Shown: positions 9 to 63,368 of the stretch, in pieces
How positions within the stretch are numbered: position 1 is the first letter of the stretch
Layout: each line of letters begins with the position of its first letter
Source: Leucoraja ocellata
Lineage: Eukaryota
DNA length: 64,000 nucleotides
Reading direction: 5' to 3'
NCBI GenBank assembly: GCA_036785375.1
Contig: JAWMAR010000081.1
Coordinates: 2,728,001 to 2,792,000 of the forward strand
Program-made: the position numbers and the translations under genes
Notes under the pieces: generated by a model
The model's database searches: none
Seen by the model: only the letters and a program-made list of their open reading frames with translations
What the model was told of the DNA's origin: nothing

Positions 9-98
9 CTTTCAATTCCTGGTCTTCTGTGTTACCACGTTCAGATATAGGGGATTGATCTAATACACGAGTAGTGCCAGAGTTTGTCAGGTTACGGT
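9..98 (-). CDS. Repeat exon, 90 nt: DRNLTNSGTTRVLDQSPISERGNTEDQELK
   Basis: tcccttgcag|AC ... AAA G|gtattt; phase 1-1, open; flank resembles that of the exon at 10119. Confidence 0.75.
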
Positions 99-289
99 CT
101 GCAAGGGACAACAAAGAAACCAAATACAAACATCACATTTTTTCATGAGAATTTGCCCTTTCTGGACATTTGCTATACACCTAGATGAGTACAGAATCAA
201 AGTCTCCCAAATCAAGAACTACAGATGTTAGTCTATATGATCTGAAAATACGTGGAAAGGCATCTTACGATGAGGACATTATGATTCCA

Positions 290-1103
290 CAATGGGTTAT
301 AGAAGATAGAGTGAGTGATTGGGCAAAAGTGTAGTTTAACATGGGTCAGTGTGAAGACATGCACTTCAGTACGAGGATTCAAAACATCGATTATTATCTA
401 AATGGCGAGGGACACGGGAAATTGGTGGTTCAGAGGATTTTAGGCGTTCTTGTGCATGAATCACAAAAATATAAAAGGCAGTTAAGAATGTAATTGGCAT
501 TTAGAATCTTGTGCAAGAGAGTTGAACTTTAAGAATAGGAAGGTTTTGTAAAGGTTGTGTTGATGGAGCCACACCTGGAATACTATGCAGAATTTTGGTT
601 CCCTTACTTAAAAAAAGGATTTAGTGGCATTAGAAGCAGTTGAATAGAGACTCATCTGGCTAATCCTGGAATGAAAGAGCTGTCCTATCATGAGCTAGAT
701 AGTTTGGTCTGTATTCCTTAGATGGTTGAGGGTGACATTATTTCAGTAAGATACTAAAAGGGCTTTAACAGGGTAGATGCTGAAATATTTTTTCTAGTGG
801 GAGAGTGATGAACAAGGGGACATGGTTACAAATGGAGCTGGTCACCTAAGTCCAAGGTGCACAGAAATGTATTTTCCCTGAGGGTAAATAATCTCTGCAA
901 TTCTAAATCCAGAGGTTGGTAGATCATTCGATGTATTTATAGTGGAAATTGACGAATATTTGAAAGATTGAGTATTTAAAGGTTATGGGGAATTTACAGA
1001 AGCGGACGAGGCTACCATAGATGAGTCATCATCATAATGAGTGGCCAGCCAGGCTTGAGGGCCCTGGAGGCCCACGCATGCTCCTAATTTCTTGTGTTCT
1101 TGT
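290..1103 (+). mobile_element. Old CR1-clade LINE 3' fragment
   Basis: Degenerate RT C-terminal motifs (ccacacctggaatactatgcagaattttgg; atgtagaa-type tail motifs) ending in a ttcttgtgttcttgt tail. Confidence 0.75.
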
Positions 1104-1526
1104 ACATAATATAATTTAAACATGCAAAGTTTTTAAAAGCAATGAGATGCATGATATCTTGCCCAGTGTTTCATGCAAAACATAATATCATGCTAGCTGA
1201 GTGTACATTACACCAACATGCAGCAGGACAAACAATTGCTGAGCAACATTTCTGAATCAAGAACAAATGACTAAAACACATGTTGCTTTAGTTGAGAGTT
1301 TAAATTGATCACTTAAACAACTTCTGATGAAGTGTCTCTCCACAGAGGTTGCATGATGACTAAATAATCTTCACAATACATTTTTATTTCAGATTTCCAT
1401 CATCGGCAAATTTTTGGTTTCCAATTGACTTAAGTGAATTTATTTGTTTGGTTGATTGTGTATTATCTCTGGTGACAACATATTTATTAAATTTATTCAT
1501 AAAACAAACAAAATGTTTTGTATTTA

Positions 1527-1612
1527 AAAAATGCCGTGGTAACTCAGCGGGTCAGGCAGCATCTCTGGAGAACGTGGAAATGTGGCATTTCAGGTCAGGA
1601 CCCTTCTTCAGA
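1527..1612 (-). mobile_element. Penelope-derived short repeat
   Basis: Reverse complement reads tctgaagaagggtcctgacctgaaatgcc...gatgctgcctgacccgctgagttacc; same family as 46161-46254. Confidence 0.7.
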
Positions 1613-2438
1613 TTTTGTATCATCTATTCCATTTATGTGAAACCCTGTTACTCGTTAAATTGCTTTAACTGGACTACTACTAAAGTTATATAACAATAAT
1701 TTGTGTATGGAACAAAAGGAGGCTAATTTAAATATGGCCCACTCTTGCACATTTACTACAATGTACACAATACCCAAGAATTATATTAAAGCATTCGTAA
1801 TGCCTCGCAGAGCAGCTGGGAATAATCCAATGCTAGTTGACTGGGTCAATCAGTTCTTGGGAAGGAGAAAGTAAGTGGGATTGAGCACGGTCAGCGGTAA
1901 CCCATCGTAAAGTTGCAGAGTTTAGAAGAATAGTATTTTTCCAATCACGTGACTATAACCAATATTGACATTAGCACAGGCAACGTTCCCTAATTTTATG
2001 ACAAGGAATCAACTAATGCAGTCAGATTATCCAGAATGAGTGTCATGTGTCAGACAGGTTCAGAAGTGAGAAAGCTATTATTTAAAGTTGAGAAATTATT
2101 GTCAAAATATGATATAAACTTTTGTATTTCTACAGCTGTAGGATAAGCTGACCAGCTACTCTCCATAACCTGGAAAGAAGGTCCAATAACAGGTTGTGCA
2201 GATGTTTGCTTCCTGGAAAAGACAATAATATTACTCACCTCTTGGTAAGTCCTTCAAATGTCCACCATTCACTATCAATGTACTCGTCTGGTAATGACCA
2301 AAATATCTACCTATGCTAAGCCCATTTTCATTCAGCCTGTACCCTTGTATGGCACAGTGTTTCAAGAATTCTTCTAAACATCTATTAAAGATTGTGAGAT
2401 TGCCTGCTTCCACCATCTTAGTGCATTCTCAATCACAT

Positions 2439-10118: not shown

Positions 10119-10208
10119 CTGTGAATTTCTTGTCTTCTATGTGGTCAATCTCAGAAACAGGGGTTGGAATAAACACATGTGAAGTGTCAGAGATTGGCAG
10201 TTTATGTT
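10119..10208 (-). CDS. Repeat exon, 90 nt: EHKLPISDTSHVFIPTPVSEIDHIEDKKFT
   Basis: cctttacag|AA ... ACA G|gtactt; phase 1-1, open. Confidence 0.8.
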
Positions 10209-10807: not shown

Positions 10808-10888
10808 CTGTCTGTTTTTTCTCTCCTGCATTATAAACATGGGTTGGATTAGACAATTTTGCAGTCTTAGATGTTGAGAGTTCATGGT
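10808..10888 (-). CDS. Repeat exon, 81 nt: DHELSTSKTAKLSNPTHVYNAGEKKQT
   Basis: tttgttacag|AC ... ACA G|gtattc; phase 1-1. Confidence 0.8.
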
Positions 10889-11850: not shown

Positions 11851-13539
11851 TTTAAATTTAAGATATATCATTGAGTCTTACATCAGAAATGAAGTGACCT
11901 TGTGTATGAATGACATACAATTCACATCCTGAAGTGTGACTATCAACTTCCCCATCCAACCCTCAACTGGCCCGGTGGTATTACTAGAGCTGTACAAAAT
12001 TACCAGAAAATGGCCATTTTTGTTTCTTACAGGGGAAAAAATAATTTTTCAGTTGCACCATGTTGAAAACACTCAGCAGCTTATGAATTAATTTCTTCTC
12101 TTTGTTATAGGACATTAATGTATCACCATTGCTGAATTGGCCCTACTACGACATTCTAAGGACAAGCAATTAATTCAAATGTAACCATGCATAAAACATT
12201 CAAAATTATCTTTCAAATAATATCAAATCACAATAATGTTGTGGACGACTGTACTGGTTGCAGGTTGAATACAACTTCTAACAACATTAATACCAGTAAT
12301 TTCAAGATAATCGCTGTTAAATACAACCATTAACTAATATTTTTGCAGACAATCAATAACAGCAACAAAAATTAAACTTTCTCCTTGATGTTCAGGACAA
12401 TTACATTAGAAATATTCAAAGCAAAAGTGTACATGATTTAAATGGCAATAGACAATCCATGCATTAAAATGTTGTATTACCATCCAGCACACTACGACAA
12501 ATCAGACACAACAATTTGACAAACACTTTATAGCCAAGCACAGCATCTAAATTTCTCCAAATGAGATGTGCTGCACAAATAGTCCAACAGAAATAAGCAG
12601 AATCACTAAATCCCATGAAATGAAGAGCAGTGTCATCATTTCATATCGTTTTTGTTACAAGTTGCAAGCAAGACAGTGCACTGACTTGTCAAATACATTC
12701 AGACACAAGTGAATTATACCACCATTCAATTATAAAGTCAAATGGCATTTTAGAATGTGTCCTAAATTCCTGTTGCATAAGGGCATATTGCCATATATAG
12801 TTACTAGGTACTGATTTCCTAGATTCACAAAGGCACAAATATTGCCAGAATGTCAGTAAATCTTAGCAAATTCAGATTAGGAGATTCCAATCATCATCTC
12901 AGGAATGTCAATGACATTGGCGAGGTTCAACTGGGCTGGTTCAAGGGGTTAAGATGGAATCCAGATACAAAATCCTCATGGTATTTTGATGAACATAGCA
13001 GTAGTACCAGGTATCATCACTGTATCAATATACTGCATTTGTTTTCATAATTTTAATATTGAAGCTAACCATGAATTACACAACTAATAATAGTTTTGAT
13101 ATACTAAACTACGTTCAATAGAAAGTGGTGACCAATTAATCCGGTATTATTCGAGAAGAATCATGTACGAGTACAATAATGAAAAGTATGTGCTATATAA
13201 TTTCCATTGCATGAAATCCAATCATTATTCGATAAACTTCTCAACAAAATAGTTCTGATCAGCGGACAGCACATTTACATCTAAGCCACGTATAAACTCA
13301 ATGAAATATGCACAATAACCCAACAAAAAAAAGCAAAATACATAAAACAAAGACATAGAATTACAACGGATTGCTTATGTCACATGGGCCGTGATACAAC
13401 ATTGTAAGCTGCAAGCAATATAGTGCATTGACAATCATAACGCACGTAACTGTAAAAGCGTGTGGTAGCACTTGCTGCATGTGCCCTAAATTTCCATCAC
13501 TATAACACAAGCTTAAGTCATAAATATTGTTAAAGGTAC

Positions 13540-13683
13540 CTGTACCTTCAGTATCACTTATCTGAGCATGCTCAGGTTCTGGGATTGGATTGATCACATT
13601 AGCAATATCAGTGACTGGCAGCCCACCGTCAGGCATTAAAGTGAACACGCTAGTAGTAGCTTCTGAGATTTTCACCTCATGGT
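13540..13683 (-). CDS. Repeat exon, 144 nt: DHEVKISEATTSVFTLMPDGGLPVTDIANVINPIPEPEHAQISDTEGT
   Basis: cttatctcttcag|AC ... ACA G|gtacc; lies inside ORF 13361-13675. Confidence 0.85.
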
Positions 13684-14175
13684 CTGAAGAGATAAGAAGG
13701 AAGCTGGATACAAAATACTGGTTTTCTCAAGTTTATAACTAGTTATTCTCATGATTAATATTGAATTATAGGACTATTATGTACCAATTTCGCAAAATTA
13801 TTCTTATTCATTTCACATAATTAATTTGTATGGATAGAGTGAAACCATGAACAAATTCAATATTAACCAGCAATAGTATAACAGCACAAAATAAATTTAC
13901 TATCCTTAAACTTTATAGCCATGAGCAGTTGATTTACAATTTTGTCCAAATAATACGAAAAAGATTTTAAAAATTGCTTCATTCCAAGACGCATTTAGTG
14001 AATTTCACAGTTAATTTAAACTGTGGCTCGACTCAAATGCACTTCACAAACCTGTAACCTAAATACCAATAAAACGGCATGGCCTAACTTTCTGCTACAG
14101 GTACATATGTACAAACCTCAGTTTGTGTATATCAATTATTCCATTGCACAGTCCACGCTCAAGGCACAAATAGGG

Positions 14176-14320
14176 GCAGCCACACCTGGAACCTTAGCAT
14201 CTCAAAATTAGAATGTTCAGGACTCAATATGGTATTGCACACATTAGTAATGTTAATGGCATTTTTCAACCTGGGATGTTACATATATTAGGCGTGTCAG
14301 AGGTTGTCACCTTGTGAGTT
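14176..14320 (-). pseudogene. Dead copy of the repeat exon
   Basis: Homologous flanks, but the acceptor reads cccttcaa instead of cag and the body is diverged. Confidence 0.55.
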
Positions 14321-14694
14321 GAAGGGATAAGGAAGAAAATAGTGTTTTGGACAAAAAATAATTTTACTGGGCATCGTCAAATTGTGACAATGTTTTACAA
14401 TTTATCTTATTGTGTATTCAAGTGGAACTATGAATAATATAAAAGTATCAAATTAATATGTTCACCAATTAAATTTAATGGTAATAAAAACATTACAGTG
14501 ATATTGCCACTTCATGCCAATCATTGTTTCCCCAAATCAGTACTAATTTAATGGCAAATAATCATCGCAAATTCATGGCCATGATTGGCTGACAATGTGC
14601 TGCCCAGCTAGAGTACAATGAGAATAAAATAATCACAATGCATGAAATTCCAGGAAACATCAATACTCAAAGCACAAATGCTCATTATCTGTTA

Positions 14695-14809
14695 TCTGAG
14701 CACAATCAGGTTCTAAACTTAATTATATTAGATGTATCAGTGTCGAAGAACTCATGGTCTGGCTCTAAAATAACCAAATTTGGAGTGTCAGATGTTGGCA
14801 TTTCACAGT
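14695..14809 (-). pseudogene. Dead copy of the repeat exon (DCEMPTSDTPNLVILEPDHEFFDTDTSNIIKFRT*)
   Basis: Acceptor tgtcag|AC present; a stop follows and the homologous donor is missing. Confidence 0.55.
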
Positions 14810-15029
14810 CTGACAGGATGCAAAGGAAGCATGAAATACAGGAAATTAAATTATCCTGAAGGATCTAACCTTGAAAATTACTTTGCATCTTATGCACCAT
14901 TTGGATTTGTTTTAAAATGATACAAAAATGATAAAACACAGCATGCACCGATGGATTGACAAATATCGTTCAATGAGCAGAGATGAGCACATTTTTGCCC
15001 CATATCTCACTCATCTATGTATCCATGTA

Positions 15030-16872: not shown

Positions 16873-17013
16873 CTTTAACTTCAGTATCTTTTACATTAGC
16901 ACGTTCAGGTTCTGGGATTGGATTGATCATATTAGGAGTATCAGTGAGTGGCAGCACATAGTTCGGCATTAATGTGACCACAAACGGAATATCTGAGCTT
17001 GGCACCTCATCAT
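16873..17013 (-). CDS. Repeat exon, 141 nt: DDEVPSSDIPFVVTLMPNYVLPLTDTPNMINPIPEPERANVKDTEVK
   Basis: cttatctctttag|AT ... AAA G|gtactt. Confidence 0.85.
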
Positions 17014-19531: not shown

Positions 19532-19657
19532 CTGCAACTTTAATATCTCCTATGTCTTCAGACTTGGTTATGGGATTGAGGATATTAGGAATGTCAGTAG
19601 CTGGTGGATCAGAGTCTGGGATTAAACTGAACATGTTAGAAGTTGGCACCTCATGGT
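19532..19657 (-). CDS. Repeat exon, 126 nt: DHEVPTSNMFSLIPDSDPPATDIPNILNPITKSEDIGDIKVA
   Basis: cttattccctcag|AC ... GCA G|gtacc. Confidence 0.85.
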
Positions 19658-20279: not shown

Positions 20280-20400
20280 TTGCCATTAGTATGATTTCGA
20301 TTTAGGGATTGGATGAATTACAATAGGAATGTTACTAAATACTAGATCAGAACCCGAGTTTAAACTAAACAGGGTAGGAGGCGCAATGGTTGCCTCTATT
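20280..20400 (-). pseudogene. Dead copy of the repeat exon
   Basis: Remnant core (gatttagggattgga...aataggaatgt) without the homologous splice sites. Confidence 0.45.
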
Positions 20401-21770: not shown

Positions 21771-21911
21771 CTGTAACGTCAAATTCTTTTATCTTAGCGC
21801 GCTCAGTTTCTGGGATTGGATTGATCACATTAGGAGTATCAGAAACCAGAGGATTTAGGCCTGTTATTAAAGTAAGCACTTTAGGAGTGCGAGAAGTTGA
21901 AACCAAGTGGT
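21771..21911 (-). CDS. Repeat exon, 141 nt: DHLVSTSRTPKVLTLITGLNPLVSDTPNVINPIPETERAKIKEFDVT
   Basis: tttttatccctttag|AC ... ACA G|gtattt. Confidence 0.85.
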
Positions 21912-22473
21912 CTAAAGGGATAAAAAACAGAATTCTTATTTTCTGAATCTATGTTGTTTCTGTGAATAATATTGAAAATGCTAGACATCGTTGTTATGTA
22001 TTGATGCAGCACATCTGTTCTTACAGTGCAATAAAACTAAATATGCAAAACTAATGTAAACATGAATAATACTTTTCATAAAGTGCAAAATCAAATGAAC
22101 ATGAAGCATTGCCTCATTAACTCAACATTACTCAAATGATCAGATATAAGAACAGATGCTCCATGCCACAAAATATGCCCAAGAGAAGTTGATAGACTTT
22201 GCTGGTCTCTAAATGTCATGAAATAAGAAGCATGGCCAAATAATTCAACAAAGATATTTAAATGCTCTCTTCCAGGAAAAATGCAACAGTGTTCATTTCC
22301 AATATTTGCAATGAAACTGAAAAGTTGCCTGTAGACAGATTATTGTCAAATACTTGTTATACATTGGAAACTTGAACACAGTTTTAGTGGCAGTGCACCT
22401 ACAGCACATGTTCTTTGTCTTTTTAGCTCAAACCCTACAATCCATCACTAATTATATCCTCATTCAGAAGTGC

Positions 22474-22613
22474 CTGTAACTTTGATATAGCCTGTCTTAA
22501 TAACCTCAGATTTAGGATTTGGAGTGAACACAATAGGAATGTTTGTGACTGGAAACTCAAAGACTGGAATTAAATGTAATGCATTAGAGTGTCAGAGATC
22601 ATCACATCATGAC
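22474..22613 (-). pseudogene. Dead copy of the repeat exon
   Basis: Donor GT changed to GC, acceptor cag changed to cgg; length not a multiple of 3. Confidence 0.6.
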
Positions 22614-23215
22614 CCGAGGGGATAAAATTGAACTAAATGTCTAATTTAATTACTCTCTAACAAAAATAATAAAACATTGTTTTGATAGACATCATTATGG
22701 GGTGTATAACTGAACCTTTCTTCTTTCTGAGAATATTAAGTGAATTTCATTGCAACCATGAATTGTGACTGGTACTATTGTCGTTGCAGCATTGCACAAT
22801 TAAATCAACATTTCTCAAAGTTACTCATATAAAAATGTTACAACAACATGCAGTTACAAAGTTTTCACCTTTCAAATGGAACTACCGTTTAAGTAATTTT
22901 CCCAACAACACAGCAATGATATGCTCTGGACTCAAAACTCCATGAAATAAGTTTGTTGTCTAAATAACCTCAAACCAAATGCATAAATTTCAGGAGGAGA
23001 TATGCGGTGGGCTGCTATGTTTATAGATGCTTTGGCATATTACTGAATAATTGTATGCAAGATAATGTATTCAGCAATAAAATTACTTCACATACAAGTA
23101 ACTTGAACATGAATTTAACAGAAACATTATGGCATAGAATTTATAGCATATGTCAAAAAATTCTGCCACTCTAGCAATCAGTTAAATTCCCAAGTGAAAG
23201 TATTGTCAGAAGTAC

Positions 23216-23347
23216 CTGCAACTTCTGTATCTCTCATCCTAGTTGGTTGAGATTCTAGGATTGGATCGATCACATCAGTAACCGGCAGCTCATGGTTTAA
23301 CATTAAAGTAAACACGTTACTAGTGTCCGAGGTTGGCACCACCTGGT
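23216..23347 (-). CDS. Repeat exon, 132 nt: DQVVPTSDTSNVFTLMLNHELPVTDVIDPILESQPTRMRDTEVA
   Basis: ttatcccgagcag|AC ... GCA G|gtactt. Confidence 0.8.
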
Positions 23348-23850: not shown

Positions 23851-23997
23851 CTGTTATTTCTGTATCTTCTATTTTAGTAGTGTCAGACGCGTGGAGTGCA
23901 TTTGGAACATTTGAAATGTCAGTGACAGGTACGTTAATGTCTGAGATTAAACAGAAGATGTTAGGTATGTTAGAGGTCGGCAACACGGTCTGCTGTA
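23851..23997 (-). CDS. Repeat exon, 147 nt using a shifted acceptor: VQQTVLPTSNIPNIFCLISDINVPVTDISNVPNALHASDTTKIEDTEIT
   Basis: Donor ACA G|gtattt intact; the homologous acceptor gives 139 nt (frameshift), whereas upstream cttacttccag|TA gives phase 1. Confidence 0.55.
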
Positions 23998-24777: not shown

Positions 24778-24921
24778 CTGTAACATCTGCCTCTCCTATC
24801 TCAGTAGGATTGGGTTCTGGGATTGGATTAATCACACTGGGAATGTCTGTGGCTTGCCATTCATAGCCAGATATAAAAGAGAACACTTTAGTTGTATGAG
24901 CAGTTGATAATTCATGGTCTT
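24778..24921 (-). CDS. Array exon 1 (type A), 144 nt: EDHELSTAHTTKVFSFISGYEWQATDIPSVINPIPEPNPTEIGEADVT
   Basis: ttttatccttag|AA ... ACA G|gtagtt. Confidence 0.8.
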
Positions 24922-25401
24922 CTAAGGATAAAAAGGAAGCCAAATTACAAAATTCTAAATATTTTCTGATCATACACCTGCACTAAGTAGTTTCTTATGT
25001 ATATTAGCACATTGAACACTATAATTATTTAATTATTTATAAAGTATAGAACAACGTCCTCCAGCCCATGGGAATTATACGAGAACCTCATAGACCAATC
25101 CCATCAGTCCAATACCGCCTGTTTTTTCCTTGCAGCAATCATTCACATTGTTGCCAACAATAATGAACCAAGTTAAGGACTACATCTAAGGGCACAATAT
25201 GTTAGTGGTTTCCAGGCTCTTCCATGCCTTACACACAACCAATACAAATATTCACATAAATATTCATGTAAAAGCATAACATGGCATCTGTGGCATGTGT
25301 CCAGACGTTTTTCCTGAATTGTGATAAACATAAGCATGCACTTTTAATTATTTGCTCCACTGCTTTTTGTAAACATAGAATACACATATTGTTAGGACTA
25401 C

Positions 25402-25545
25402 CTGTAAATTCTGCCTCTCCTATCTTAGCAGGATCAGGTTCTGGGATTGGATTAATCACACTGGGAATGTCTGTGGCTTGCCGTTCATAGCCAGATATTA
25501 AAGAGAACACTGTAGTTGTGTGAGAAGTTGACAATTCATGGTCTT
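25402..25545 (-). CDS. Array exon 2 (type B), 144 nt: EDHELSTSHTTTVFSLISGYERQATDIPSVINPIPEPDPAKIGEAEFT
   Basis: Same splice sites, open frame. Confidence 0.8.
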
Positions 25546-26031
25546 CTAAGGATAAAAAGTAAGCCAAATTATAAAATTCCAAACATCTTCTGAATGTACA
25601 CCTGCATTGAGTAGTTTCCTTTGTATATTAGCACATTTAACATTATCATTAGTTAATTACTTAATACAGTATGGAACAAAATCATCTAACTCATTGGAAT
25701 TATATGAGATGCAAACCTAACAGAGCAATCCCATCAGTCTCATACCGCCTCTTATTTCCTGGCAACACTCTCTCACATTGTTTCCAACAACAAAGAAGCA
25801 AATTAAGGAAAGACCATAAGTGTACAGTATGTTTGTGTTTTCCAGGGTCTTCCATAACTTACACACAACCATTACAAATATTCATATAAATAGTCATGTA
25901 AAAGCATACCGTGGCAACTGTGGCACGTGTCCAGACTCTTCTCCTTAATTGTGATTAACATAAGCATGCATTTTTAATTATTTGTTTCATTGATAACTTC
26001 AAACATAAAATACACAGATTGTTAGAACTAC

Positions 26032-26175
26032 CTGTAACATCTGTCTCCACTATATTAGTAGGATCGGGTTCTGGGATTGGATTGATCACACTGGGAATGT
26101 CTGTGGCTTGCCGTTCATAGCCAGATATTAAAGTGAACACTTTAGTTGTGTGAGAAGTTGATAATTCATGGTTTT
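26032..26175 (-). CDS. Array exon 3 (type C), 144 nt: ENHELSTSHTTKVFTLISGYERQATDIPSVINPIPEPDPTNIVETDVT
   Basis: Same splice sites, open frame. Confidence 0.8.
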
Positions 26176-33723: not shown

Positions 33724-33726
33724 TAC

Positions 33727-37190: not shown

Positions 37191-37334
37191 CTGTAACATC
37201 TGCCTCGACTATCTTAGTACGATCGGAATCGGGGATTGGATTGATCACACTGGGAATGTCTGTGGCTTGCCGTTCATAGCCAGATATTAAAGTGAACAGT
37301 TTAGTTGTGTGAGAAGTTGACAATTCATGGTCTT
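37191..37334 (-). CDS. Array exon 15, 144 nt: EDHELSTSHTTKLFTLISGYERQATDIPSVINPIPDSDRTKIVEADVT
   Basis: Same splice sites, open frame (translated by hand). Confidence 0.8.
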
Positions 37335-37805
37335 CTAAGGATAAAAAGGAAGCCGAGTTACAAAATTCTAAATATCTTGTAAACGTACACCTGATGCTTA
37401 GTAGTTTCCTATGTACATTAGCACATTGAACACTACCATTGGTTAATTATTTAATACAGTACGGAACAAAGCCATCCAGCCCATTGGAATTATATGGGAA
37501 CCTAACAGAGCGAACCCATCAATTCCATACCGCTTCTTATTTCCTTCCAACACTCACTCACATTGTCGCCAGCAAAGAAGAAGCAAATTAAGGACAGACA
37601 TCTAAGTGTACAGTATGTTTGTGTTTTCCAGCTTCTTCCATGCCTTACACACAACCAATACAAATGTTCACGTAAAAGCCTAGTATGGCATCTGTGGCAC
37701 GTGTGCAGACTATTTCCCTTAATTGTGATAAACCTAAACATGCATTTTTAATTATTTTCTCCATTGCTTAATTCAAACATAAAATACACAGATTGTTAGA
37801 ACTAC

Positions 37806-37949
37806 CTGTAACATCTGCCTCTCCTATCTTAGCAGGATCAGGTTCTGGGATTGGATTGATCACACTGGGAATGTCTGTAGCTTGCCGTTCATAGCCAGAT
37901 ATTAATGTGAACACTTTAGTTGTGTGAGAAGTTGACAATTCATGGTCTT
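37806..37949 (-). CDS. Array exon 16, 144 nt
   Basis: Same splice sites, open frame (ORF 37768-37971). Confidence 0.8.
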
Positions 37950-38429
37950 CTAAGGATAAAAAGGAAGTCAAATTACAAAATTCTAAATATCTTCTAAACG
38001 TGCACCTGACACCGAGTAGTTTCCTATGTTTATTAGCACATTGAACACTACCATTAGTTAATTATTTATAGAGTATGGAACAACTCCACTAGCCCATGGG
38101 AATTATATGAGAACCTAACAGAGGGATCCCATCAGTCCAATACCGCCTGTTTTTTCCTTGCAGCAATCACTCACATTGTTGCCAACAATGATGAAGCAAG
38201 TTAAGGACAGACATCTAAGGGCACAGCATGTTTGTGTTTCCAGGCTCTTCCATGCCTTATACACAACCAATTCAAATATTAACATAAATATTAATTTAAA
38301 AGCATAACATAGCATCTGTGGCACGTGTCCAGATTTCTTTCCTTAATTGTGATAAACCTAAGCATACACTTTTAATTATTTACTCTATTGTTTACTTCAA
38401 ACATAGAATACACAGATTGTTAGGACTAC

Positions 38430-38573
38430 CTGTAAATTCTGCCTCTCCTATCTTAGCAGGATCAGGTTCTGGGATTGGATTGATCACACTGGGAATGTCT
38501 GTGGCTTGCCGCTCATGGCCAGATATTAAAGTGAACACTTTAGTTGTGTGAGAAGTTGACAATTCATGGTCTT
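38430..38573 (-). CDS. Array exon 17, 144 nt
   Basis: Same splice sites, open frame (ORF 38392-38595). Confidence 0.8.
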
Positions 38574-41320: not shown

Positions 41321-41464
41321 CTGTGACTTCACTAAATCTTATTTTAGCTGGTTCAGATTTTATGGCTGGATTCAACACATGTGGAGGAGAGTCAGACACT
41401 GGCTGCTTATGACCTGGCAATAAGGTGACCACATTAGGAGTTTGAGAAGATGATACTGTATGGT
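41321..41464 (-). CDS. Repeat exon, 144 nt: DHTVSSSQTPNVVTLLPGHKQPVSDSPPHVLNPAIKSEPAKIRFSEVT
   Basis: ttttatttcctcag|AC ... ACA G|gtactt. Confidence 0.85.
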
Positions 41465-42066: not shown

Positions 42067-42204
42067 CTGTAACTTCAGTAACTCGTATTTTAGTTGGTAC
42101 AGATTCAGGGATCGAAGTGAACACAGGAGTGTCAATGATTTGTGATTTAGTCCCTGAACTTGTTCTGAACATGTTAGGAGTGTCAGCGGTTGGCTCCATG
42201 TAGC
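42067..42204 (-). CDS. Repeat exon, 138 nt: GYMEPTADTPNMFRTSSGTKSQIIDTPVFTSIPESVPTKIRVTEVT
   Basis: ttcttattccccag|GC ... ACA G|gtactt. Confidence 0.85.
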
Positions 42205-43212: not shown

Positions 43213-44078
43213 TCATGACCTCCGGACTCTTACACTCAATGCCCCGACATACGACAGCAATCCTCTTGATGCTTGAGTAAAAGCAAAAAGAGGGGTGTGG
43301 CAGTGTGGATGTTGGCTGTTTCGAGAAGTCGATGGTTGACTGGGGTCTGGGAGAAGTGTCTCAAGGGATAGAAAATGGACAGGCAGAGACAGGAATATAG
43401 AAATTGAGCAGGGAGAGGGACAGGGGGTTGCTGCAGGGATGTGTCCAGAACTAATTGAGTTGTAGAGAGTGTAGGAATCTGATTGGGATACATGGATAGA
43501 ATGGTATTTGAACACCCCTTCATGGTCTTGGAAGTGCATGATTGAGAGTCCAATTAAGTCATGGCTGTGTTGGTATTCAGTGGTGAGGTGAAGTGGCTAT
43601 GAAGCAATGGTGTGACGTTACTAAAGGTCATCATTTGGTTGAGGAGTAGGGGCTGGGGGTCTGTTGGTTGAGTGAGATGGGTGGGTTGGCAGAGCATGAT
43701 GAGAGCTAGTACTAACTAAATTAATGTGCCCCTGCTCAAATTGGGCTCCTAGTGTTGGGAGGGTCCAATTTAAGAGAGCCTTCTTTAAATCAAGCTACTA
43801 AAGAAATAGCAGAATTGTAAAAACCTGGTTGTTCCTAGTGTGCCCAAGGTTAGCTCGTGCCGGTCAAAGCTTTAAAGGGGCATCGCACCAGAATGATAAT
43901 GGAAACAGCATCAAATCACTAGTGGAAATGACTGGTCATATTTGTCCCTGAAATGGTCACAAGTGTGTTGCACTCAAGACACAATCAATTTTCATGCAAC
44001 CGAATTTCTAAGCTGAAGTTTAAACTTTTAATTTAGCACAAATACGAACAATCAACATGCAAACATGGTCGATAATAC

Positions 44079-44168
44079 TTGTAACATCAGCATCTCTTGT
44101 TATAGCTTTTTCAGATTTGGGGTTTGGATTGAATACATATGCAGAGTCAAAGACCAAGAGGTTATAGC
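44079..44168 (-). pseudogene. Half-exon, 90 nt (GYNLLVFDSAYVFNPNPKSEKAITRDADVT); dead copy or spliced at an internal AG
   Basis: Open frame, donor ACA A|gtatta, but no pyrimidine tract upstream; equals the second module of the long exon. Confidence 0.5.
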
Positions 44169-44669
44169 CTGACCATAATGGTTTCATTCAACCATTGAGC
44201 CATTGATAGCAATATATGTCTGTTTTTAGAATGCAAAAGTATGTAGAGTAAAACACCCTTTATCATTAGAGTAAATTTAAGTGGATGCGATGGAATACCA
44301 AAATTATGTAGTTAATTATTTTCATACATGACTAAAGAATTCATTACTTAATTTTCAGCCAAATAAATGGATTATTCTGAAGATTTCTGATGAAAGTGCT
44401 AATAAGCAGACAGCCCATGCAGCAACACAATATAAATACCAATTATTATTCAACAATTAGAACAAATTAAGTATCAAATTGAAAGTTTACAGTCAAGCAC
44501 ACTCTTTAAACTTCAAGAAAAACACTGGTCAAATAATCTAACAGAAAAAAGTACCACATTTAAAATTCCTACATTAACTGTGCAAGGTGTGACTGAGTGG
44601 GGTATAGCATTTACAACATATGTCTTTGTTATTTTACACAATTCTCAACAGGCAAAATACCTCAAATAC

Positions 44670-44807
44670 CTACAACATCAATAACTGGACTGTTGGCTCG
44701 TTCTGATGCAGAAATTCTATTGAATAAATTAGGTGGCTTGGTGGGTTTTAGTTTACAGCTAGAGAGTGATTTGAAGAAATTAGTATTAGATGGTGGCATT
44801 GTATGTA
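44670..44807 (-). pseudogene. Probable dead repeat exon (frame open, acceptor AG changed to AA)
   Basis: ttatcccttcaa at the acceptor position; donor GTA G|gtattt retained; flank homologous. Confidence 0.5.
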
Positions 44808-45451
44808 TTGAAGGGATAAGAAAAAAAGCAGAGACAAAATTCTTAATTTCTCATTAAAATAGTCACTTGCTTTGATGAATATATTTCTTTACCGTTATGA
44901 TTAGTTGATTACATCACATCATTCTTTACCAATGTACCACCAATTTGGTCCCATCCATAAACTTACTAAAAATGCAACTATATTCTCATCCCAATTGTTA
45001 ATGTAGGTAACAAATAACAATGGACCCAGTACCAACCTTACAGACCTTCAACCTGAAAAACAACCCTCCACCTATCACCCTCTGACATGTACCACCACCA
45101 ATTATTCAACACATTTCTTTTATATCATTACAATGCCATACCTTGCAGAATAAATCTCATTTATTCGTCATACCATTGACTAGCTTTCTATTCTTTCATA
45201 ATTCTGTGTTCAATGAGTCAGATTACAAAGAATGCAATGCCTATTTCCAGGGAATAGGCAATGTACTGTTCCTTTTTTAAAATTATGTCAATATATTTAA
45301 CTTGTTGCATGCAAGATTCATACAGGCTATCAAGCGTGTCTCACAAAAGTAACAAACATTCATTAAATGTGAATAGAAGATAGAGCTATTGCAACAGGTT
45401 TCCTAATTTCCTCACAATTCAACAACAAGACAGAAACATTGTCAGAAGTAC

Positions 45452-45568
45452 CTGTAACTTCAGGACGTTCAGATTGTGTGATTGGATTGACCATGCCAGG
45501 GTTTGGCAACTTAGAGCCTGATATTACAGTAATTGTTTTAGGAGTGTGAAAGGTTGACATGGCATGGT
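45452..45568 (-). CDS. Repeat exon, 117 nt: DHAMSTFHTPKTITVISGSKLPNPGMVNPITQSERPEVT
   Basis: cttattcccctcag|AC ... ACA G|gtactt. Confidence 0.85.
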
Positions 45569-46160: not shown

Positions 46161-46254
46161 CTGAAGAAGGGTCTCGACCCGAAACGTTGCCTATTTCCTT
46201 CGCTCCATAGATGCTGCCTCACCCGCTGAGTTTCTCCAGCATTTTTGTCTACCT
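46161..46254 (+). mobile_element. 94-bp Penelope-derived insertion with a hammerhead-like core, inside a dead repeat exon (~46145-46370)
   Basis: 9-bp TSD TCTATAAAT (46152-46160, 46255-46263); CTGAAGA-a-GGGT-ctcg-ACCC-GAAA-CGTT. Confidence 0.8.
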
Positions 46255-46665
46255 TCTATAAATTGAAAGGTAGTTGGCTCAGGTGCTGGAACTTCTTTGC
46301 CATATTGGGAGTGTCAGTGGTTTGTTGTATAGAACATGAGATTAATAGGAGTATCAATGATTGGTTTCTTAAGGAATAAGAAAGAAGCCAGATACTAAAT
46401 TCTTAACCTTTCATTAAAATACAACAAACTAGCAGTTCACATAGCATAATTGATGCTATCTAACAATATAGCCATAATTGGTAAACAGAGCCAGGCACAC
46501 ATTGAGCTCTATCAAAAAAGAGCATTGACCAACTAACCCCATCAAGGATAAGCAAAATCTTATATCTCAGAAGATATGCAGTGAATTGTTCATTTCATAG
46601 AATTGTGCCTTTACATAATTAAAACACACAATATTTTCAACTGAGACAAACATTCTCACAAGTAC

Positions 46666-46806
46666 CTGTAGGTTCGATATCACTTATCGTAACAGATTCT
46701 GGTTCTGGAATTGGATAGATCACATTAGGGGTGTCAGTAACTGGAATTTCATGGTCTGCCATTAAAGTGGACACATTATTTATGCCATACATTGGCACCT
46801 CATAGT
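46666..46806 (-). CDS. Repeat exon, 141 nt: DYEVPMYGINNVSTLMADHEIPVTDTPNVIYPIPEPESVTISDIEPT
   Basis: cttatccactcag|AC ... ACA G|gtactt. Confidence 0.85.
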
Positions 46807-49589: not shown

Positions 49590-49700
49590 ATTATTTAGTA
49601 CATTCCTGACTATATGCCAGGAATGGAACTCCCATATTATTTCCAAATATAGTGATTGAACTGAACACATTAGGAATGCCATAATTTGGCCCCTCATAGT
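49590..49700 (-). pseudogene. Dead copy of the repeat exon (DYEGPNYGIPNVFSS... then a stop)
   Basis: 5' part homologous to the exon at 46666; in-frame TAA; no homologous donor. Confidence 0.55.
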
Positions 49701-51289
49701 CTGCAGCTGACGATAAGAAAGCCAAATAAAAAGTCTTAAATTCTCAGTAAAATAAATGTTCCACTGGGCATCATTATAACGTAACCAGATTGTATTGTTG
49801 GTCTTATCCTTTCACCATAAAACATTCAATATACAGTATACAGGATGTTTGTGTTACATTTTTCTTGTGGCTGTGTGTTCTTTATTATTGTCCTGCTGCT
49901 GACAACCCAAATTCCACCGACCCTGGTTGTGTGGCAATAAATTCTATCTATCTAAATTCTATCTATCTATTCAGATGTGCACCATGTGGCCTCTTACAAT
50001 ATTAAATTATAGATAATATTTCACTCATTAATTCAAATTCTTCAAAATAATTCATGCTGGCAACAATTTTTTCACTACAGAAAAACTAATTTCGACCCAA
50101 TAAACTTCACAATGTAACCTCGATGAAATGACAACTAATTTACAGCTGAACGGCAATTAATGAATTGTTGACCAAATATTCCAACAAAACTAAGCACATT
50201 TGCTTGCGGTGGTGGATTGCTCCATCATTTAAAATTTCCACTAAAATGTTAGCAGTTATGAGTGGAACTGCAGAACCAGGAAATTCAGAACTACTGTACA
50301 TGCTTGCATGCATGTAGAAATCCAGATCATAGAGTCACAGTGTTATCGAGAGATACAGAACTAAATGTATCCTTCTGCTCATTAAGTCTTTGCCAACTAT
50401 CCACTACTCATTTACACTATTTTACCTTGATCCCATTTATTATTTTCCCCTCATGCCTATCAAGTCACCCCTGATTTTAATGCTCTGCTACACGCGGCCA
50501 ATAAATCTACCAACCAGCACATCTATGGGATATTGTAGGAAATCAGAACACCACAAGCTTATTTGTGCATAATTCTGAGTTCAGGTTAAAAGGACATCGA
50601 CCTTAAAACATTAATTCCACTTCTCCTTCCAAAGACACTAAACTGCCTACTAAGTGTACAGCTAAAATCTATTTTCGTTACTGTAAGCTAAAAATACTAA
50701 AGCTGTTTGTTACTTTGTTTAAAAGAGTTAAGTGTTGATCACAGCAATTGCTTGTCAATTTCAACAACCTCTGCAGTGTAACTGTGGGGACGCTCCACCT
50801 GCTCGAACCAAATTCCGTTATAAATGCTTCCGCAACCTATCCTCTCTAGAGGGTAGACTTTGTATCACTTTGAAAGTTTCTTATGTTTTAAATGGTTTAT
50901 TATTTTACATTTTAAAATTGTGAATATTTAATTTTAAATTATTTTTTTAAGCTTTTTTGCAAACACATGACTACATTAGAGCATGGCTTCCATGAATGCA
51001 GTTCAGGACCTTGTCCATCTTCTCAGAGCCAATGTCTTAGTGGAAGTGAGAGGCCTTCACAGATTAAGACTAGATTGAGTGCATTGGTGACCAAGCAAAA
51101 GCAACCTCATGGAAACCGTGACATTGAATGATTTCATGCAAAACATGTAAAAGCTACTTTGCAAAAGGTATGGTATTGTGTGTACAGCACATGACCATGT
51201 TTTTGACAACTCAGCAAAGGTGTTAACACACACGTATATGTACTCATTCCTCAGCCTTACATACAAAGCACACATATTGTCCGAAGTAC

Positions 51290-51406
51290 CTGTTGGTTCA
51301 GTATCTGTGGTCTGTGTGATTGGATTGAACACATGTGAAGAGTCGGAGGCCACCAACTCATTGTCTGACTTTAAAGTGAACACTTCAGAAGTGTCAAAGG
51401 CTGGCA
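51290..51406 (-). CDS. Repeat exon, 117 nt: VPAFDTSEVFTLKSDNELVASDSSHVFNPITQTTDTEPT
   Basis: cttttcctcttag|TG ... ACA G|gtactt. Confidence 0.85.
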
Positions 51407-52692: not shown

Positions 52693-52767
52693 CTGTGGAT
52701 TCTTTCTCTTCAGGGTTATTAACTTCATACACAGTAATCGGAGTGTCAGAATCTAGCAGTGCATAAT
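52693..52767 (-). CDS. Repeat exon, 75 nt: DYALLDSDTPITVYEVNNPEEKEST
   Basis: ttttgttatctag|AT ... ACA G|gtattc. Confidence 0.7.
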
Positions 52768-57327: not shown

Positions 57328-57411
57328 CTGCAAATGGCTGTTGAACTTTGTTGTCTGCATCAGTAATTGGATTTGAAGTGATGAAGGCTTTACTTGTGGT
57401 GAATGATGATT
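57328..57411 (-). CDS. Repeat exon, 84 nt: ESSFTTSKAFITSNPITDADNKVQQPFA
   Basis: catgctag|AA ... GCA G|gtaatt; phase 1-1; NPI motif. Confidence 0.65.
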
Positions 57412-59952: not shown

Positions 59953-60039
59953 CTGTGGATTGTTTTGGTTCCACTGCATCATTTTTAGATGATTCTAAAG
60001 AGTTGACAGGCGAACTGCTCAAGAATGGTTTCCCAAATT
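59953..60039 (-). CDS. Repeat exon, 87 nt: EFGKPFLSSSPVNSLESSKNDAVEPKQST
   Basis: gttccag|AA ... TCC ACA G|gtattc; donor context matches the exon at 52693. Confidence 0.65.
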
Positions 60040-60518
60040 CTGGAACTTATTCAGAGAATACAAATAAAGCATGTATTTTACCAACTGGACTGTTTTGCAT
60101 GGTATCAAATACGATGTGAACATTTATAGCATTCCAAATTCAAAACCATATAAATATATGCAGAGCAGTGGCCAAGCATGATGGAATACATTGATCAAGC
60201 TAAGCAGTACTCTGAAGTAATCTGATGTATTTAAATTATACCTCCATGCAAATTGTTCACTTAATAATTTGATTCATGCAAATTGTCATTGATACATTGA
60301 TACCTGACTAAAGCTAGATTCTAAAGCTAAAATATGTAGATTTGCTTACCAAACTATTTCTAATGTATTGCACTGCGTGATTGTATATTGGCTTACTGAT
60401 GTATTTTGCCACTTTCCATCTTTCAAGAGCAAGAAAGCACATAGATAATGTGTTTGCATTCAAGTGGTGAACAGGACAAGGAAGTGTGCATCCATGCCAT
60501 AACTTATCTACATACTAC

Positions 60519-60608
60519 CTGAAATCTGCTCCCGTTGTGGAGAATCAAATTCATAAATTGTATTTGAGGTGGTGAAAAATGAATTGGCGGTGGGCTCAAC
60601 CACACGTT
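60519..60608 (-). CDS. Repeat exon, 90 nt: ERVVEPTANSFFTTSNTIYEFDSPQREQIS
   Basis: aattgcag|AA ... TCA G|gtagta; phase 1-1, open. Confidence 0.65.
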
Positions 60609-61429
60609 CTGCAATTTGGTCAAAACAAAGAGCAAACTCCGTGATATGAACATAAGAAAATAGGTGCAGAAGTATACCTTGCAACCCCTCATGCCTGCAA
60701 ACCACAGACACCAAGAATGTAGCTGAACTATTCCATTCATTCAACTTTCCTATGTCATTTAGATATTTTGTTTTTTCATAGTGCGCAAAACTCTATTCTA
60801 TTCAATCTTTAATACATTTGTAATTATGCATCAACAGACCACAGAATTATTAATGCTGAAGAGGAAACAGATGTATGGTTTTAAAAATAGATCTGACTGT
60901 GTGAAAGTGGTTATACTTTAATTAATGCACATTCTTAACAGAATTCTTTGATGTGCCTTTCAAAAACATCATAATAAAATGACTAAGTGATGGACTTTCT
61001 CTAAATGTCTATAAAATGTTATCAGGGTAAGATGATTCGGGAAAGAATGAAAATTAATTTTAGAAATACTATTTATTTACAATATTTTCTCATTTGAAGT
61101 ATTTGGTCCAATGCAGTGCATTTCAGGCAAACCCGAGTGTTTTACAGTGATGTACTTTAAAATTTGTGAAAATATCACATTTGATACAAATAGTGGATAT
61201 GTACAGCTTTCACTACAATATTCATTCCAAAGTAAAATTAATTATCACAACTATTCGTAAGGCACAGGTCATAATTTCATAACTTGAGGAAATGGGAATT
61301 TAAAGGAAATTAATGTCACACAAAGAATGGTCAATTTTAGTTCCCAATCGCAAGCAAGATATCTCTGATTAACCAATATAAAGGCCACTGATGTTTGAAG
61401 ATTTTGTTTCATACACTCTTGCGAAGTAC

Positions 61430-61483
61430 CTGAGATATTTACCATACCAACTGGCTGAACAAATGCAATATTGAAGCTATTCA
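61430..61483 (-). other. Possible further phase-1 exon or remnant (VNSFNIAFVQPVGMVNIS)
   Basis: Family-type donor TCA G|gtactt; acceptor lacks a pyrimidine tract. Confidence 0.3.
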
Positions 61484-61756
61484 CTGTCACTGTTCACTCA
61501 GTCAAAATGAATCAAATAAATATCTAAAATGATAAATTAAAATAATGTATGCTTTGTTATAGCTTATTTATATTGCTGGACACCAATGTTATACTTGCCA
61601 TTATTAACTTCATCAAACACAATGCCAAACAACAGACACAGGGATTTACAACTCCTGATCTTCCAACTGTTAAGTCAATGATATGACAGGAATAAAATAC
61701 CTAAGCAAATTACTTTTTTAAATTCGTAATTAACTACTTTAATGACATTCAATGTC

Positions 61757-62290
61757 CATAGAAACATAGAAAATAGGTGCAGGAGTAGGCTATTTGGCCC
61801 TTCGAGCCTGCACCGCCATTCAATATGATCATGGCTGATCATCCAACTCAGTATCCTGTACCTGCCTTCTATCCATACTGCCTGATCCCTTTAGTCACAA
61901 GGACTACATCTAACTCCCTCTGAAATATAGCCAATAAACTGGCCTCAACTACCTGTGGCAGAGAATTCCAGAGATTCACCACTCTCTGTGTGAAAAATGT
62001 TTTTCTCATCTCAGTCCCAAAAAATTTCCCCCTTATCCTTAAGCTGTGACCCCTTGTTCTGGACTTCCCCAACATCGGGAACAATCTTCCTGCATCCAGC
62101 CTGTCCAACCCCTTAAGAATTTTGTAAGTTTCTATAAGATCCCCCCTCAATCTTCTAAATTCTAGCGAGTACAAGCCGAGTCTATCCAGTCTTTCTTCAT
62201 ATGAAAGTCCTGACATCCCAGGAATCAGTCTGGTGAACCTTCTCTGTACCCCCTCTACCGCAAGAATGTCTTTCCTCAGATTAGGAGAAA
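61757..62290 (-). mobile_element. Young CR1 LINE 3' fragment, same subfamily as 2439-4796
   Basis: ORF 61869-62303; near-identical 3' UTR and (catagaaa)n tail. Confidence 0.95.
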
Positions 62291-63284
62291 CACTGCACTG
62301 CAAGACTCCATCAAGTTTCCCTCTACAGACATGTTCTCCTTAGAATGGCTGATGCAAAAACTTCTACAACATTTGGTTTGGAACTTTAGCTAAGGATGTC
62401 CCTCAACAGATGTTTCTGTTATTTCCAGCAATTAATATGATTCTTTTACTCAATCCTTGCAGCATTCTCTCGTAAATATTGAATAGCTTTCAACAGGATG
62501 ACAATGACTTTGCTGACTCATTTTTCATTCCATCTTTCCACCATTCAGTCTCGTCTTCGGCATTTATGTGTTGGGCCTGGCCAATCCAATCCGGAGGAAA
62601 TAAATGTTTTTGGAGCCCCCTCCTGCTCTTAGCTGTTGAATTGACCACCACCAATCATGGCCGGATATGTCTGGACAGCAGAGTTGTAATCTGATGTACT
62701 GGTTGGTTTTTTGGGCAACAAATGCCGCTCTCCGCCTGCGCCCCTAATTTAACTAGGGTTGATCCTCAGCTTGATTACAACAGTAGAATGAAAGTTAAGC
62801 TAACCGTAACTGGCAGGTAAATGTGGTAATGTACATATCTGCTGCCGCTAACAGTCTACCTCACCTCATGATACTGAATTGCCAGACCGATTCAGAGTCA
62901 GTATTATTTAGCAACATTGGAGAACAACGTAACATGATGGTAATGCACTCAGTATCAAGCCAAGACTTAGGCTACACAAGAACTGCACATTGGTCACTTG
63001 TACCAGCGCTGTCATCAACTGATGCATTTACAATAGGTACACTGGTAAGGATGTGATTGTACAGACTTATCGCTTGTATTGGTTCAATTGCTGTTTACTG
63101 GCTATCCAGTCCAGAGCTCTGAACTTCAGGATTCTGCCATCTCAGTCTATGGTGATAATACCGTGCTGCTACTGATGATGGTCATTGAAGTCTCCCACAT
63201 GTAACTATAGTACATATTGTTGATATTGAGCAACACATTATTGTTATTGATAATAGATATATCTATTTCATATGCACTAACTAC

Positions 63285-63368
63285 CTGTGAATTGTTTCAC
63301 ATTATCAGGTGCTGAGGTTGTGGGTGAATAGATGTAAAATGCACCACTGGAGGATGGTTCCTCATACT
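63285..63368 (-). other. Repeat-exon homologue with an uncertain acceptor (YEEPSSSGAFYIYSPTTSAPDNVKQFT)
   Basis: Donor TTC ACA G|gtagtt and open frame; the phase-1 acceptor position reads caa, and only a phase-0 aag is present. Confidence 0.4.

Follow-up and report, generated by a model that had tools for sequence, protein, structure and literature searches.

A run of in-frame cassette exons in the centre of the skate ABI3BP gene

Background

The variable stalk of CD44, the A/B/C exons of PTPRC (CD45) and the PEVK segment of titin are built from symmetric cassette exons that encode a length-variable low-complexity segment. A closer counterpart of the locus analyzed here is human ABI3BP (TARSH, target of Nesh-SH3), which consists of an FN3 domain, a low-complexity centre of small duplicated frame 1-1 exons, a second FN3 domain and TARSH_C. 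Ten duplicated exons of 63-93 nt are recorded in the human gene (PMC5740500 supplement), and Hatje et al. list this cluster among candidates for mutually exclusive exons (PMC5740500). Human isoforms reach 1786 aa, and inclusion of the disordered cassettes is regulated (PMC9239745; see also PMC13518942). Mammalian ABI3BP is secreted into the matrix and is involved in integrin beta-1 signalling (PMC6426741; the integrin link appears also in PMC13518942). Lineage-specific repeats occupy the same region in other vertebrates, e.g., in the tailed frog (2185 aa) and a pit viper (about 2000 aa). The paralog FNDC1 shares the FN3 and C-terminal domains and is among the family representatives compared below. 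A paper on tandem exon duplication (PMC9013439) does not mention ABI3BP. A literature search found no paper describing the skate array and none joining abi3bp with Leucoraja; among the shark- and skate-related ABI3BP papers listed, one names ABI3BP, a single time.

The host gene

The window, a 64,000-nt stretch of a Leucoraja ocellata contig, contains an array of minus-strand exons (Table 1) that sequence similarity identifies as the central part of the skate (rajid) ABI3BP gene, an already known extracellular matrix gene. The flanking exons share 70-97% identity with proteins that carry the names target of Nesh-SH3 or abi3bpa. A protein search with the FN3 exon 40 kb upstream of the array gives 24 matches at 70-82%, nearly all chondrichthyan and most of them bearing these names. 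The first FN3 domain (103896-103708 in window numbering) precedes the spacer, scores above the cut-off for PF00041 and is 82% identical to the Pristis target of Nesh-SH3. Further upstream on the same strand lies a predicted, signal-peptide-like exon 1 (C81:2893846, minus strand) which, together with N-terminal exons at 120104, 115560 and 110673, is 81-93% identical to family members. The contig piece holding the window stops at a gap 10.4 kb downstream, and the downstream exons (C81:3242582-3268877), which encode the second FN3 domain and TARSH_C (PF21731, over cut-off), were read from a 99%-identical copy. The order is collinear, from the signal-peptide-like exon through the array to TARSH_C. 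The cassettes continue past the window, with at least 11 exons upstream and at least four downstream, so that the central P/T/S-rich region comprises at least 50 small frame 1-1 exons.

Following the gene in both directions, as the first-pass annotation had proposed, thus supplies the host that it could not name, and the design that it took to be new belongs to a gene already present in RefSeq for three skates and known in humans to have duplicated frame 1-1 exons in the same region. The comparison with CD44- and CD45-like membrane stalks fails, given that the spacer lies between two FN3 domains of a TARSH_C-ended matrix protein and that a Pfam search of four homologues identifies no transmembrane family. 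The sequences of CD44, CD45 and titin are unrelated to the array, and ABI3BP is a secreted matrix protein rather than a membrane receptor or sarcomere filament; by analogy with the mammalian protein, the skate protein is probably secreted into the matrix.

The 372-kb contig piece with the window is flanked by 200-N gaps and shows a 98-99% inverted match to the DNA on its left and right in all parts compared (about 230 of 372 kb, both ends included), and each TARSH_C exon has a partner with the identical score. The inverted second copy is, judging from these matches, most likely the other haplotype, and a real second gene is unlikely given the same three observations. Contigs C183 and C2256 carry a TARSH_C locus that is more distant and probably FNDC1.

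The exon array

All 35 lengths listed by the first-pass annotation were recovered as stop-free, phase 1-1 stretches between AG and GT on the minus strand, from 9 to 60608; they total 4503 nt, in agreement with a product of about 1,500 aa, and the described T/S/P/D/E-rich, nearly Cys-free composition is reproduced (T13 P11 S10 I9 E9 V7 D7, C0.1). A strict donor-site scan finds 36 sites on the minus strand of the window and 2 on the plus strand. In flanking control DNA the count is 7 over 380,000 strand-bases (1.2 per 64 kb), which places the array far beyond chance. Several details required correction. The array is real from 9 to 60608, but its supposed end at 63368 is an 84-nt homologous stretch with the acceptor AA instead of AG. 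For three exons the RefSeq skate models use another length, namely 90 nt for 147 (23940-23851), 138 for 144 (13683-13546) and 93 for 87 (60045-59953). The statement that all exons are in frame holds for the intact ones and is partly an effect of listing, given that nine decayed copies in the introns were left out. These nine copies, together with the dead exon at the 5' end and the copy damaged by a LINE, show a birth and death of exons that had escaped the first reading.

Table 1. Cassette exons, decayed copies and LINE-like pieces in the window
Feature	Position	Strand	Remarks
Dead 84-nt cassette (YEEPSS...)	63285..63368	-	Acceptor AA not AG; in other haplotype donor also lost (AT); orthologue in Rhinoraja and stingray models
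90-nt phase 1-1 ABI3BP cassette	60519..60608	-	
93-nt cassette; 87 nt via inner acceptor at 60039	59953..60045	-	
84-nt cassette	57328..57411	-	
75-nt cassette	52693..52767	-	
117-nt cassette	51290..51406	-	
Decayed copy, 5' part only	49652..49728	-	
141-nt cassette	46666..46806	-	Not in Leucoraja X1 and X4; in Amblyraja and Rhinoraja models; stingray orthologue 1:1
Decayed copy, acceptor deleted	46250..46396	-	
117-nt cassette	45452..45568	-	In Amblyraja and Rhinoraja models
Decayed cassette, acceptor AA, indels	44658..44835	-	Similar exon intact in Narcine models (comparison by eye)
Decayed copy, open 90-nt 3' half (44168-44079), weak splice sites	44056..44180	-	No orthologue among models compared
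138-nt cassette	42067..42204	-	Stingray orthologue 1:1
Older 144-nt cassette	41321..41464	-	Stingray orthologue 1:1
Young array units 1-4	36571..38573	-	144-nt exons from 38573, 37949, 37334, 36714; ~475-nt intron each
LINE-like (RT-type) piece	34577..36281	.	Inverted partner of 32052-33724
Young array unit 5, 144 nt	34310..34453	-	
114-nt copy of young unit	33727..33840	-	30-nt in-frame deletion; donor split by LINE-like insertion
LINE-like insertion within donor site of 114-nt copy	31466..33724	.	
Young array units 6-16	24778..30984	-	144-nt exons from 30984, 30352, 29729, 29230, 28666, 28035, 27411, 26799, 26175, 25545, 24921
90-nt cassette per skate models; 147 nt via upstream AG at 23997	23851..23940	-	
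132-nt cassette	23216..23347	-	
Decayed copy, open 90-nt 3' half (22563-22474), GC donor	22464..22627	-	Orthologue is exon in stingray models, absent from skate models shown
141-nt cassette	21771..21911	-	
Decayed copy	20296..20395	-	
126-nt cassette	19532..19657	-	
141-nt cassette	16873..17013	-	Stingray orthologue 1:1
Decayed cassette, frameshifting deletions, donor lost	14682..14834	-	
Decayed cassette, acceptor AA, indels, stop	14162..14340	-	
138/144-nt cassette, two donors 6 nt apart	13540..13683	-	Orthologue multiplied to 3-4 copies in stingrays
Decayed fragment	12831..12916	-	
81-nt cassette	10808..10888	-	
90-nt cassette	10119..10208	-	Leucoraja X4 skips it relative to X1
90-nt cassette	9..98	-	Retained also in short Pristis and Narcine models

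Orthology and predicted isoforms

The same gene with the same exons is represented in RefSeq by XP_055500955/958/959 (Leucoraja, "mucin-2"), XP_032888575 (Amblyraja) and XP_078265648 (Rhinoraja). XP_055500955 contains 32 of 36 tested stretches in order, with 91-100% identity; of the 35 listed exons, 32 are in order in the Leucoraja model and two more are found in the models of other skates. A profile of the unit matches three of 79 family representatives, namely Narcine, Callorhinchus and one unnamed protein, and in these comparisons the repeat is found only in chondrichthyan proteins. The array is neither a new gene nor a new mechanism but a cartilaginous-fish-specific repeat in a layout known from the human gene.

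Whole cassettes distinguish the predicted isoforms, in differences that range from 27-48 aa to blocks of 240-378 aa, and the long-unit block is absent from Pristis X3 and Narcine X5; these models are automatic predictions, in which the skipping of one of several near-identical units could be an artefact of mapping. Two equal-length Amblyraja models exchange one 96-aa block for another, and this swap, along with the listing of the human cluster by Hatje et al. (PMC5740500), is what would be expected if cassettes were mutually exclusive or used in small subsets, varying the sequence of the spacer but not its length. We regard such usage as extremely unlikely because the models of three skates hold 11-16 young units together and because these units, with 0-16 differences over 144 bases, are so alike that swapping them would alter little.

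Expansion, decay and selection

The 16 young units are copies of one 144-nt cassette that were tandemly duplicated as exon plus intron. Units 6-16 form a four-unit higher-order repeat, with units 6, 10 and 14 identical. None of the 16 has lost AG/GT or its open frame in either haplotype, and the RefSeq Leucoraja model contains them all; the expansion is common to three skate genera, with 16, 13 and 11 copies. Stingrays multiplied a different unit, the orthologue of the 13540..13683 cassette (3-4 copies). The array introns contain at least ten dead or dying copies; the 114-nt copy (33727..33840), missing from Leucoraja X1 and lacking a close match in the skate models compared, is likely dying.

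Among the young units, 144 exon columns hold 39 variants and 482 intron columns 246 (P 5e-5), and no exon indels are seen where about 5.7 are expected (P 0.003). The two haplotypes are unlike at 5 of 3,246 exon bases, compared with 809 of 112,927 overall (P 5e-6). The exons are constrained against indels and substitutions, in tests that were run on copies picked for being intact. Taken alone, neither the lack of stops (P 0.21) nor that of splice-site loss (P 0.13) reaches significance. The exon-intron comparison bears out the selection on translation suggested earlier; dN/dS does not, its value of 0.81 across the 16 young units being not significantly lower than 1 (P 0.24).

The latter value, the dead copies in the same introns, the extreme youth of the array and the variation of copy number among skates are all compatible with the alternative that, within ABI3BP, tandem DNA turnover generated the 16 young exons mostly as a by-product and that splicing includes them seldom if at all; being in frame, they would be tolerated while heading to decay. 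This is quite unlikely considering that the young exons are half as variable as the introns and free of indels, that splice sites and frame are intact in every unit of both haplotypes, and that the expansion extends over three genera and is included in full in the RefSeq model.

The RNA data listed are uninformative on expression. Four of 24 listed runs, aligned to 9900-26400 at 88% likeness, show depth almost only on interspersed repeats, and among 15 joints listed of 15 + 542, none falls at an exon boundary; no RNA source listed covers 21700-31100. The RNA runs are probably from another species, being mostly 90-95% alike, and the one contig run resembled DNA.

Composition of the spacer

The spacer carries about -10 net charges per 100 aa (-9.7) in units of up to 144 nt, whereas the shorter human exons are basic (R/K/P/T) and most other family spacers are net positive. 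S+T account for about 23% of residues and hydrophobic residues (ILVFM) for another 23% or so; T9, D25, P32 and I33 are conserved across 21 units. The latter two features could reflect a small folded or binding domain in tandem rather than a passive spacer. We consider this very unlikely: a Pfam search with two exons of the repeat identifies no family, a PDB profile search no relative (best E 0.73), the predicted structure of a single unit has a pTM of 0.15 and no secondary structure, and in-frame deletions yield units of 37-48 aa. A protein search with one unit gives 0 of 2 candidates, and an ESM Atlas search with the Hemitrygon repeat region no usable match. The AlphaFold model of a Mobula isoform gives residues 221-880 a pLDDT of about 26-38 and the FN3 domains values of mostly 70-90; low values are no proof of disorder, given that confidence is also low over TARSH_C and the N-terminus.

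Mucins carry their PTS repeats in a single large exon, alongside VWD/C8/TIL or SEA/TM domains. A gel-forming mucin such as mucin-2 or a membrane mucin is rejected here because Pfam detects no mucin domain in four homologues (only FN3-type families, TARSH_C and one weak spurious match), each repeat has its own exon, and S+T is about 23%. The name "mucin-2" of the Leucoraja model is a misnomer for a protein with FN3 and TARSH_C, and is corrected here. SCPP-like acidic phosphoproteins are rich in S-x-E phosphorylation motifs, of which the spacer has 3 against 14.9 in shuffles, so this class is rejected as well. Ser-Gly is enriched in the skate spacer (20 against 4.7 in shuffles), in the context TLISGYE without upstream acids, but not in shark spacers; the chondroitin-sulfate attachment motif is Ser-Gly with nearby acidic residues, mostly N-terminal (PMC10424144, PMC8418075).

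Function and implications

Altogether, the window is the centre of skate ABI3BP, and its phase 1-1 exons code for a long, T/S/P-rich and acidic stretch that separates two FN3 domains; this stretch is probably an unstructured spacer, with a length probably set by in-frame exon skipping. The lineage-specific, one-repeat-per-exon spacer of skippable cassettes selected for translation, as outlined by the first-pass annotation, is supported. Cassettes are duplicated, likely by unequal crossing-over, and because every one is phase 1-1, duplications and losses keep the frame, so that cassettes are born (the 16 young copies) and die, and different units expand in different lineages. With more cassettes included, the distance between the two FN3-bearing ends would grow, and the protein would gain up to about 150 net negative charges along with likely O-glycan sites; selection may act mainly on frame and bulk composition and less on exact residues.

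A more speculative and rather unlikely possibility is that in cartilaginous fishes the basic ABI3BP spacer turned into a polyanion, whose length splicing can set anywhere between nearly zero and about 1,500 residues, that skates, stingrays and sharks lengthened it independently, and that skates multiplied a unit with Ser-Gly, in which case the long isoform could act, in cartilage or other matrix, as a proteoglycan-like component with a tunable charge.

ABI3BP is poorly understood, and the inclusion of its disordered cassettes changes in osteoarthritic cartilage and as osteoblasts differentiate. The skate gene is an exon accordion, with fast duplication and death of symmetric cassettes, lineage-specific expansion of units and a charge reversed in chondrichthyans, and is therefore a good natural case for asking whether the purpose of such a spacer is length and charge rather than sequence.

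Host gene and gene models

The array lies in the central spacer of ABI3BP (TARSH, target of Nesh-SH3), a gene with the domain order FN3, spacer, FN3, TARSH_C. In the 100 kb on either side of the window, an exon coding for half an FN3 domain matches 24 of 28 candidates (70-82% identity), nearly all from named chondrichthyans and mostly bearing the names target of Nesh-SH3 or abi3bpa. Ahead of the window come at least 11 small cassettes, followed by the array and 4 further cassettes; the contig piece holding the window stops at a gap 10.4 kb downstream.

Coordinates of features at the ABI3BP locus (C81, contig coordinates; window coordinates above 64,000 lie upstream of the array)
Feature	Position	Remark
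Exon 1	C81:2893846	placed by mapping homologous proteins back
Upstream exons	window 120104, 115560, 110673, 103896, 101895	placed by mapping homologous proteins back
Half-FN3 exon	window 103896-103708	
Young tandem array	24.5-31.5, 33.7-34.6, 36.3-38.8 kb	exon-plus-intron units of ~625 bp
LINE-like pieces	window 32052-33724, 34577-36281	inverted to each other
99%-identical copy	C81:3090177-3268877	with the second FN3 and TARSH_C exons after the array
Part of the array in the other copy	C81:3170700-3174550	extra DNA between units 12-14
C-terminal exons, found again	C81:3422409-3427663	
Apparently interleaved region of the scaffold	C81:2504766-3427663	

With the Stegostoma repeat region as query, 20 of 7,998 scored proteins are returned, among them a 2319-aa Leucoraja protein labelled "mucin-2", a 2289-aa target of Nesh-SH3 from Amblyraja and one protein from Rhinoraja. 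The Leucoraja model X1 contains 32 of the 36 tested window stretches in order (91-100% identity); the missing ones are cassettes 46806 and 45568 (named by their minus-strand starts), both present in the Amblyraja and Rhinoraja models (89-96%), a deletion-bearing 114-nt copy, and the 63368 stretch. This agreement places the source genome as that of a rajid skate closely akin to the species of the model.

The 99%-identical copy most likely represents the other haplotype because the window's piece, compared over about 230 of its 372 kb and at both ends, mirrors the DNA on both flanks, and because each TARSH_C exon in the assembly is present twice. The scaffold looks like two interleaved haplotypes: the gene of one is interrupted by a gap, in which the 372-kb piece with the window lies inverted. 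Copy counts taken from the 3.44-Gb assembly are therefore probably too high. In the other haplotype the same 16+1 exons are present, but units 12-14 are separated by additional DNA, of which a 1.6-kb stretch is 95% similar to window 124179-125757; therefore, the array introns are polymorphic for insertions.

Structure and predicted splicing of the array

The first-pass annotation described about 35 homologous phase-1 cassette exons in an unnamed gene; every exon length that it listed is recovered as an AG...GT, stop-free, phase 1-1 stretch. The feature is real, and that structural reading was largely right. A strict scan finds 36 minus-strand donor sites and 2 on the plus strand, against 7 per 380,000 strand-bases in the control. 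The summed translation is rich in T/P/S/I/E, with a single cysteine and a net charge of -149. The long unit resembles a 90-nt unit extended at its front by 51-54 nt, and the inner AG is still present in several long exons. Sixteen 144-nt exons (38573-24778) and the 114-nt copy are young, duplicated as exon-plus-intron units.

The predicted XP_ model variants, of a kind that would rest on RNA-seq introns, include whole-cassette differences that separate isoforms within one species: losses of 27, 30, 48, 96 or 123 aa in Rhinoraja, 240 aa in Amblyraja, and single losses of 17-47 aa or blocks of up to 378 aa in Hemitrygon. The long unit is missing from two predicted models, Pristis X3 and Narcine X5; in the latter, the N-terminus is present and the repeats are skipped. 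Several Narcine models (among P0068, P0214 and P0215) begin within the repeat region, without a signal-peptide-like segment or first FN3; an internal start could explain this, as could a break in the annotation. The majority of the young exons start with tandem acceptors (tag|AAG|AC), and the older exon 13683 has a donor pair spaced 6 nt; one-residue isoform differences in Rhinoraja match tandem splice sites. The LINE-like pieces, 84-91% complementary over about 1.7 kb, bracket exon 34453 and the 114-nt copy and no other exon. Their pairing in the pre-mRNA could loop out both exons or favour back-splicing; exon 34453 is nevertheless included in the RefSeq model.

Constraint, decay and lineage-specific expansion

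Among 14 young units, 144 exon columns hold 39 variants vs 246 in 482 intron columns (P 5.5e-5), and the exons have 0 gap runs, with 5.7 expected, vs 20 (19 used) in the intron alignment (P 0.003). Between haplotypes, 5 of 3,246 bases differ, three of them silently, in the 33 cassettes that have a single copy (18 of these lie inside the window), vs 809 of 112,927 overall (P 5e-6). Against selection counts the dN/dS of the 16 young exons (0.81 over 120 pairs; 14 of 48 distinct changes silent, P 0.24), and neither the absence of stops nor the preservation of splice sites reaches significance by itself. Constraint acts on the frame and the overall sequence, and weakly on single residues.

Copies also decay. 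A nucleotide profile detects nine additional homologous stretches within introns, and each of them lacks an acceptor, a donor, an intact frame or some of the unit. In two, a 90-nt half is still open, though its splice sites are weak. The 63368 exon, its AG gone, survives in Rhinoraja and stingray models, and the 22563 half in stingray models; by eye, the 44835 relic is similar to a Narcine exon. In a tree of 133 units (each with at least 35 profile positions; Leucoraja models omitted as redundant with the window), in which support is rough given only 46 columns, older cassettes group as skate-plus-stingray orthologues, and one branch unites the 16 young window units with 13 from Amblyraja and 11 from Rhinoraja (81/99, under the tool's star). 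The best stingray match of the young units is one unit (49-62%), which we infer from its position to be their orthologue. In stingrays it is the orthologue of 13683 that multiplied (7 units, 99/99). Sharks and batoids have separate units in the tree, a weakly supported split.

Comparison across the family

A phmmer search against 1.84 billion representatives gives 777 matches; 79 of the best 150 were examined, and the spacer is delimitable in 37. Of these 37 spacers, that of Callorhinchus carries -4.9 net charges per 100 aa; the remaining 36 range from -3.4 to +13.8, with a net positive charge in 33. In long elasmobranch isoforms (n=8), the spacer carries -6.4 to -9.7. The ten representatives looked up by name are ABI3BP of plaice, anchovy, two frogs, a snake (via a cluster mate), a bird, a turtle and Narcine, a Callorhinchus FN3 protein and one FNDC1. 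The skate unit profile matches 3 of the 79. Frog and snake ABI3BP (P0077, tailed frog; P0097, pit viper cluster; up to 2185 aa) have their own independent tandem repeats, unrelated to the skate unit, at the same position; the family as a whole may thus be prone to exon expansion.

Human ABI3BP is reported to contain a cluster of ten basic exons of 63-93 nt, each in frame 1-1, that mouse and rat have lost (PMC5740500). A 1786-aa isoform carries two FN3 domains, and inclusion of the disordered cassette region is reported to be higher in osteoarthritic cartilage (PMC9239745); the region is described as partly spliced out in osteoblast differentiation, in a paper that also cites binding to integrin beta-1 (PMC13518942). 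A review treats ABI3BP as a matrix protein whose function is unclear (PMC6426741). The gene and exon design are already known; no literature on the chondrichthyan array was found, and the acidic repeat and lineage-wise expansions appear not to have been described before.

Skate ABI3BP is probably secreted, with a spacer that may be O-glycosylated and cassette skipping that may be regulated. Composition and structure prediction suggest a disordered spacer (AlphaFold pLDDT 26-38 over the spacer of a Mobula isoform, yet TARSH_C is low too; pTM 0.15 for a single-unit model). A proteoglycan role is possible because Ser-Gly occurs in 15 of the 16 young units; against it count the poor fit of the Ser-Gly context to known sites (GAG attachment motif from PMC10424144 and PMC8418075, the main texts of which do not mention ABI3BP, although the supplements could list it) and the lack of Ser-Gly enrichment in shark spacers. 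Most likely, the spacer functions as an adjustable polyanionic tether in a matrix protein, joining its folded ends.
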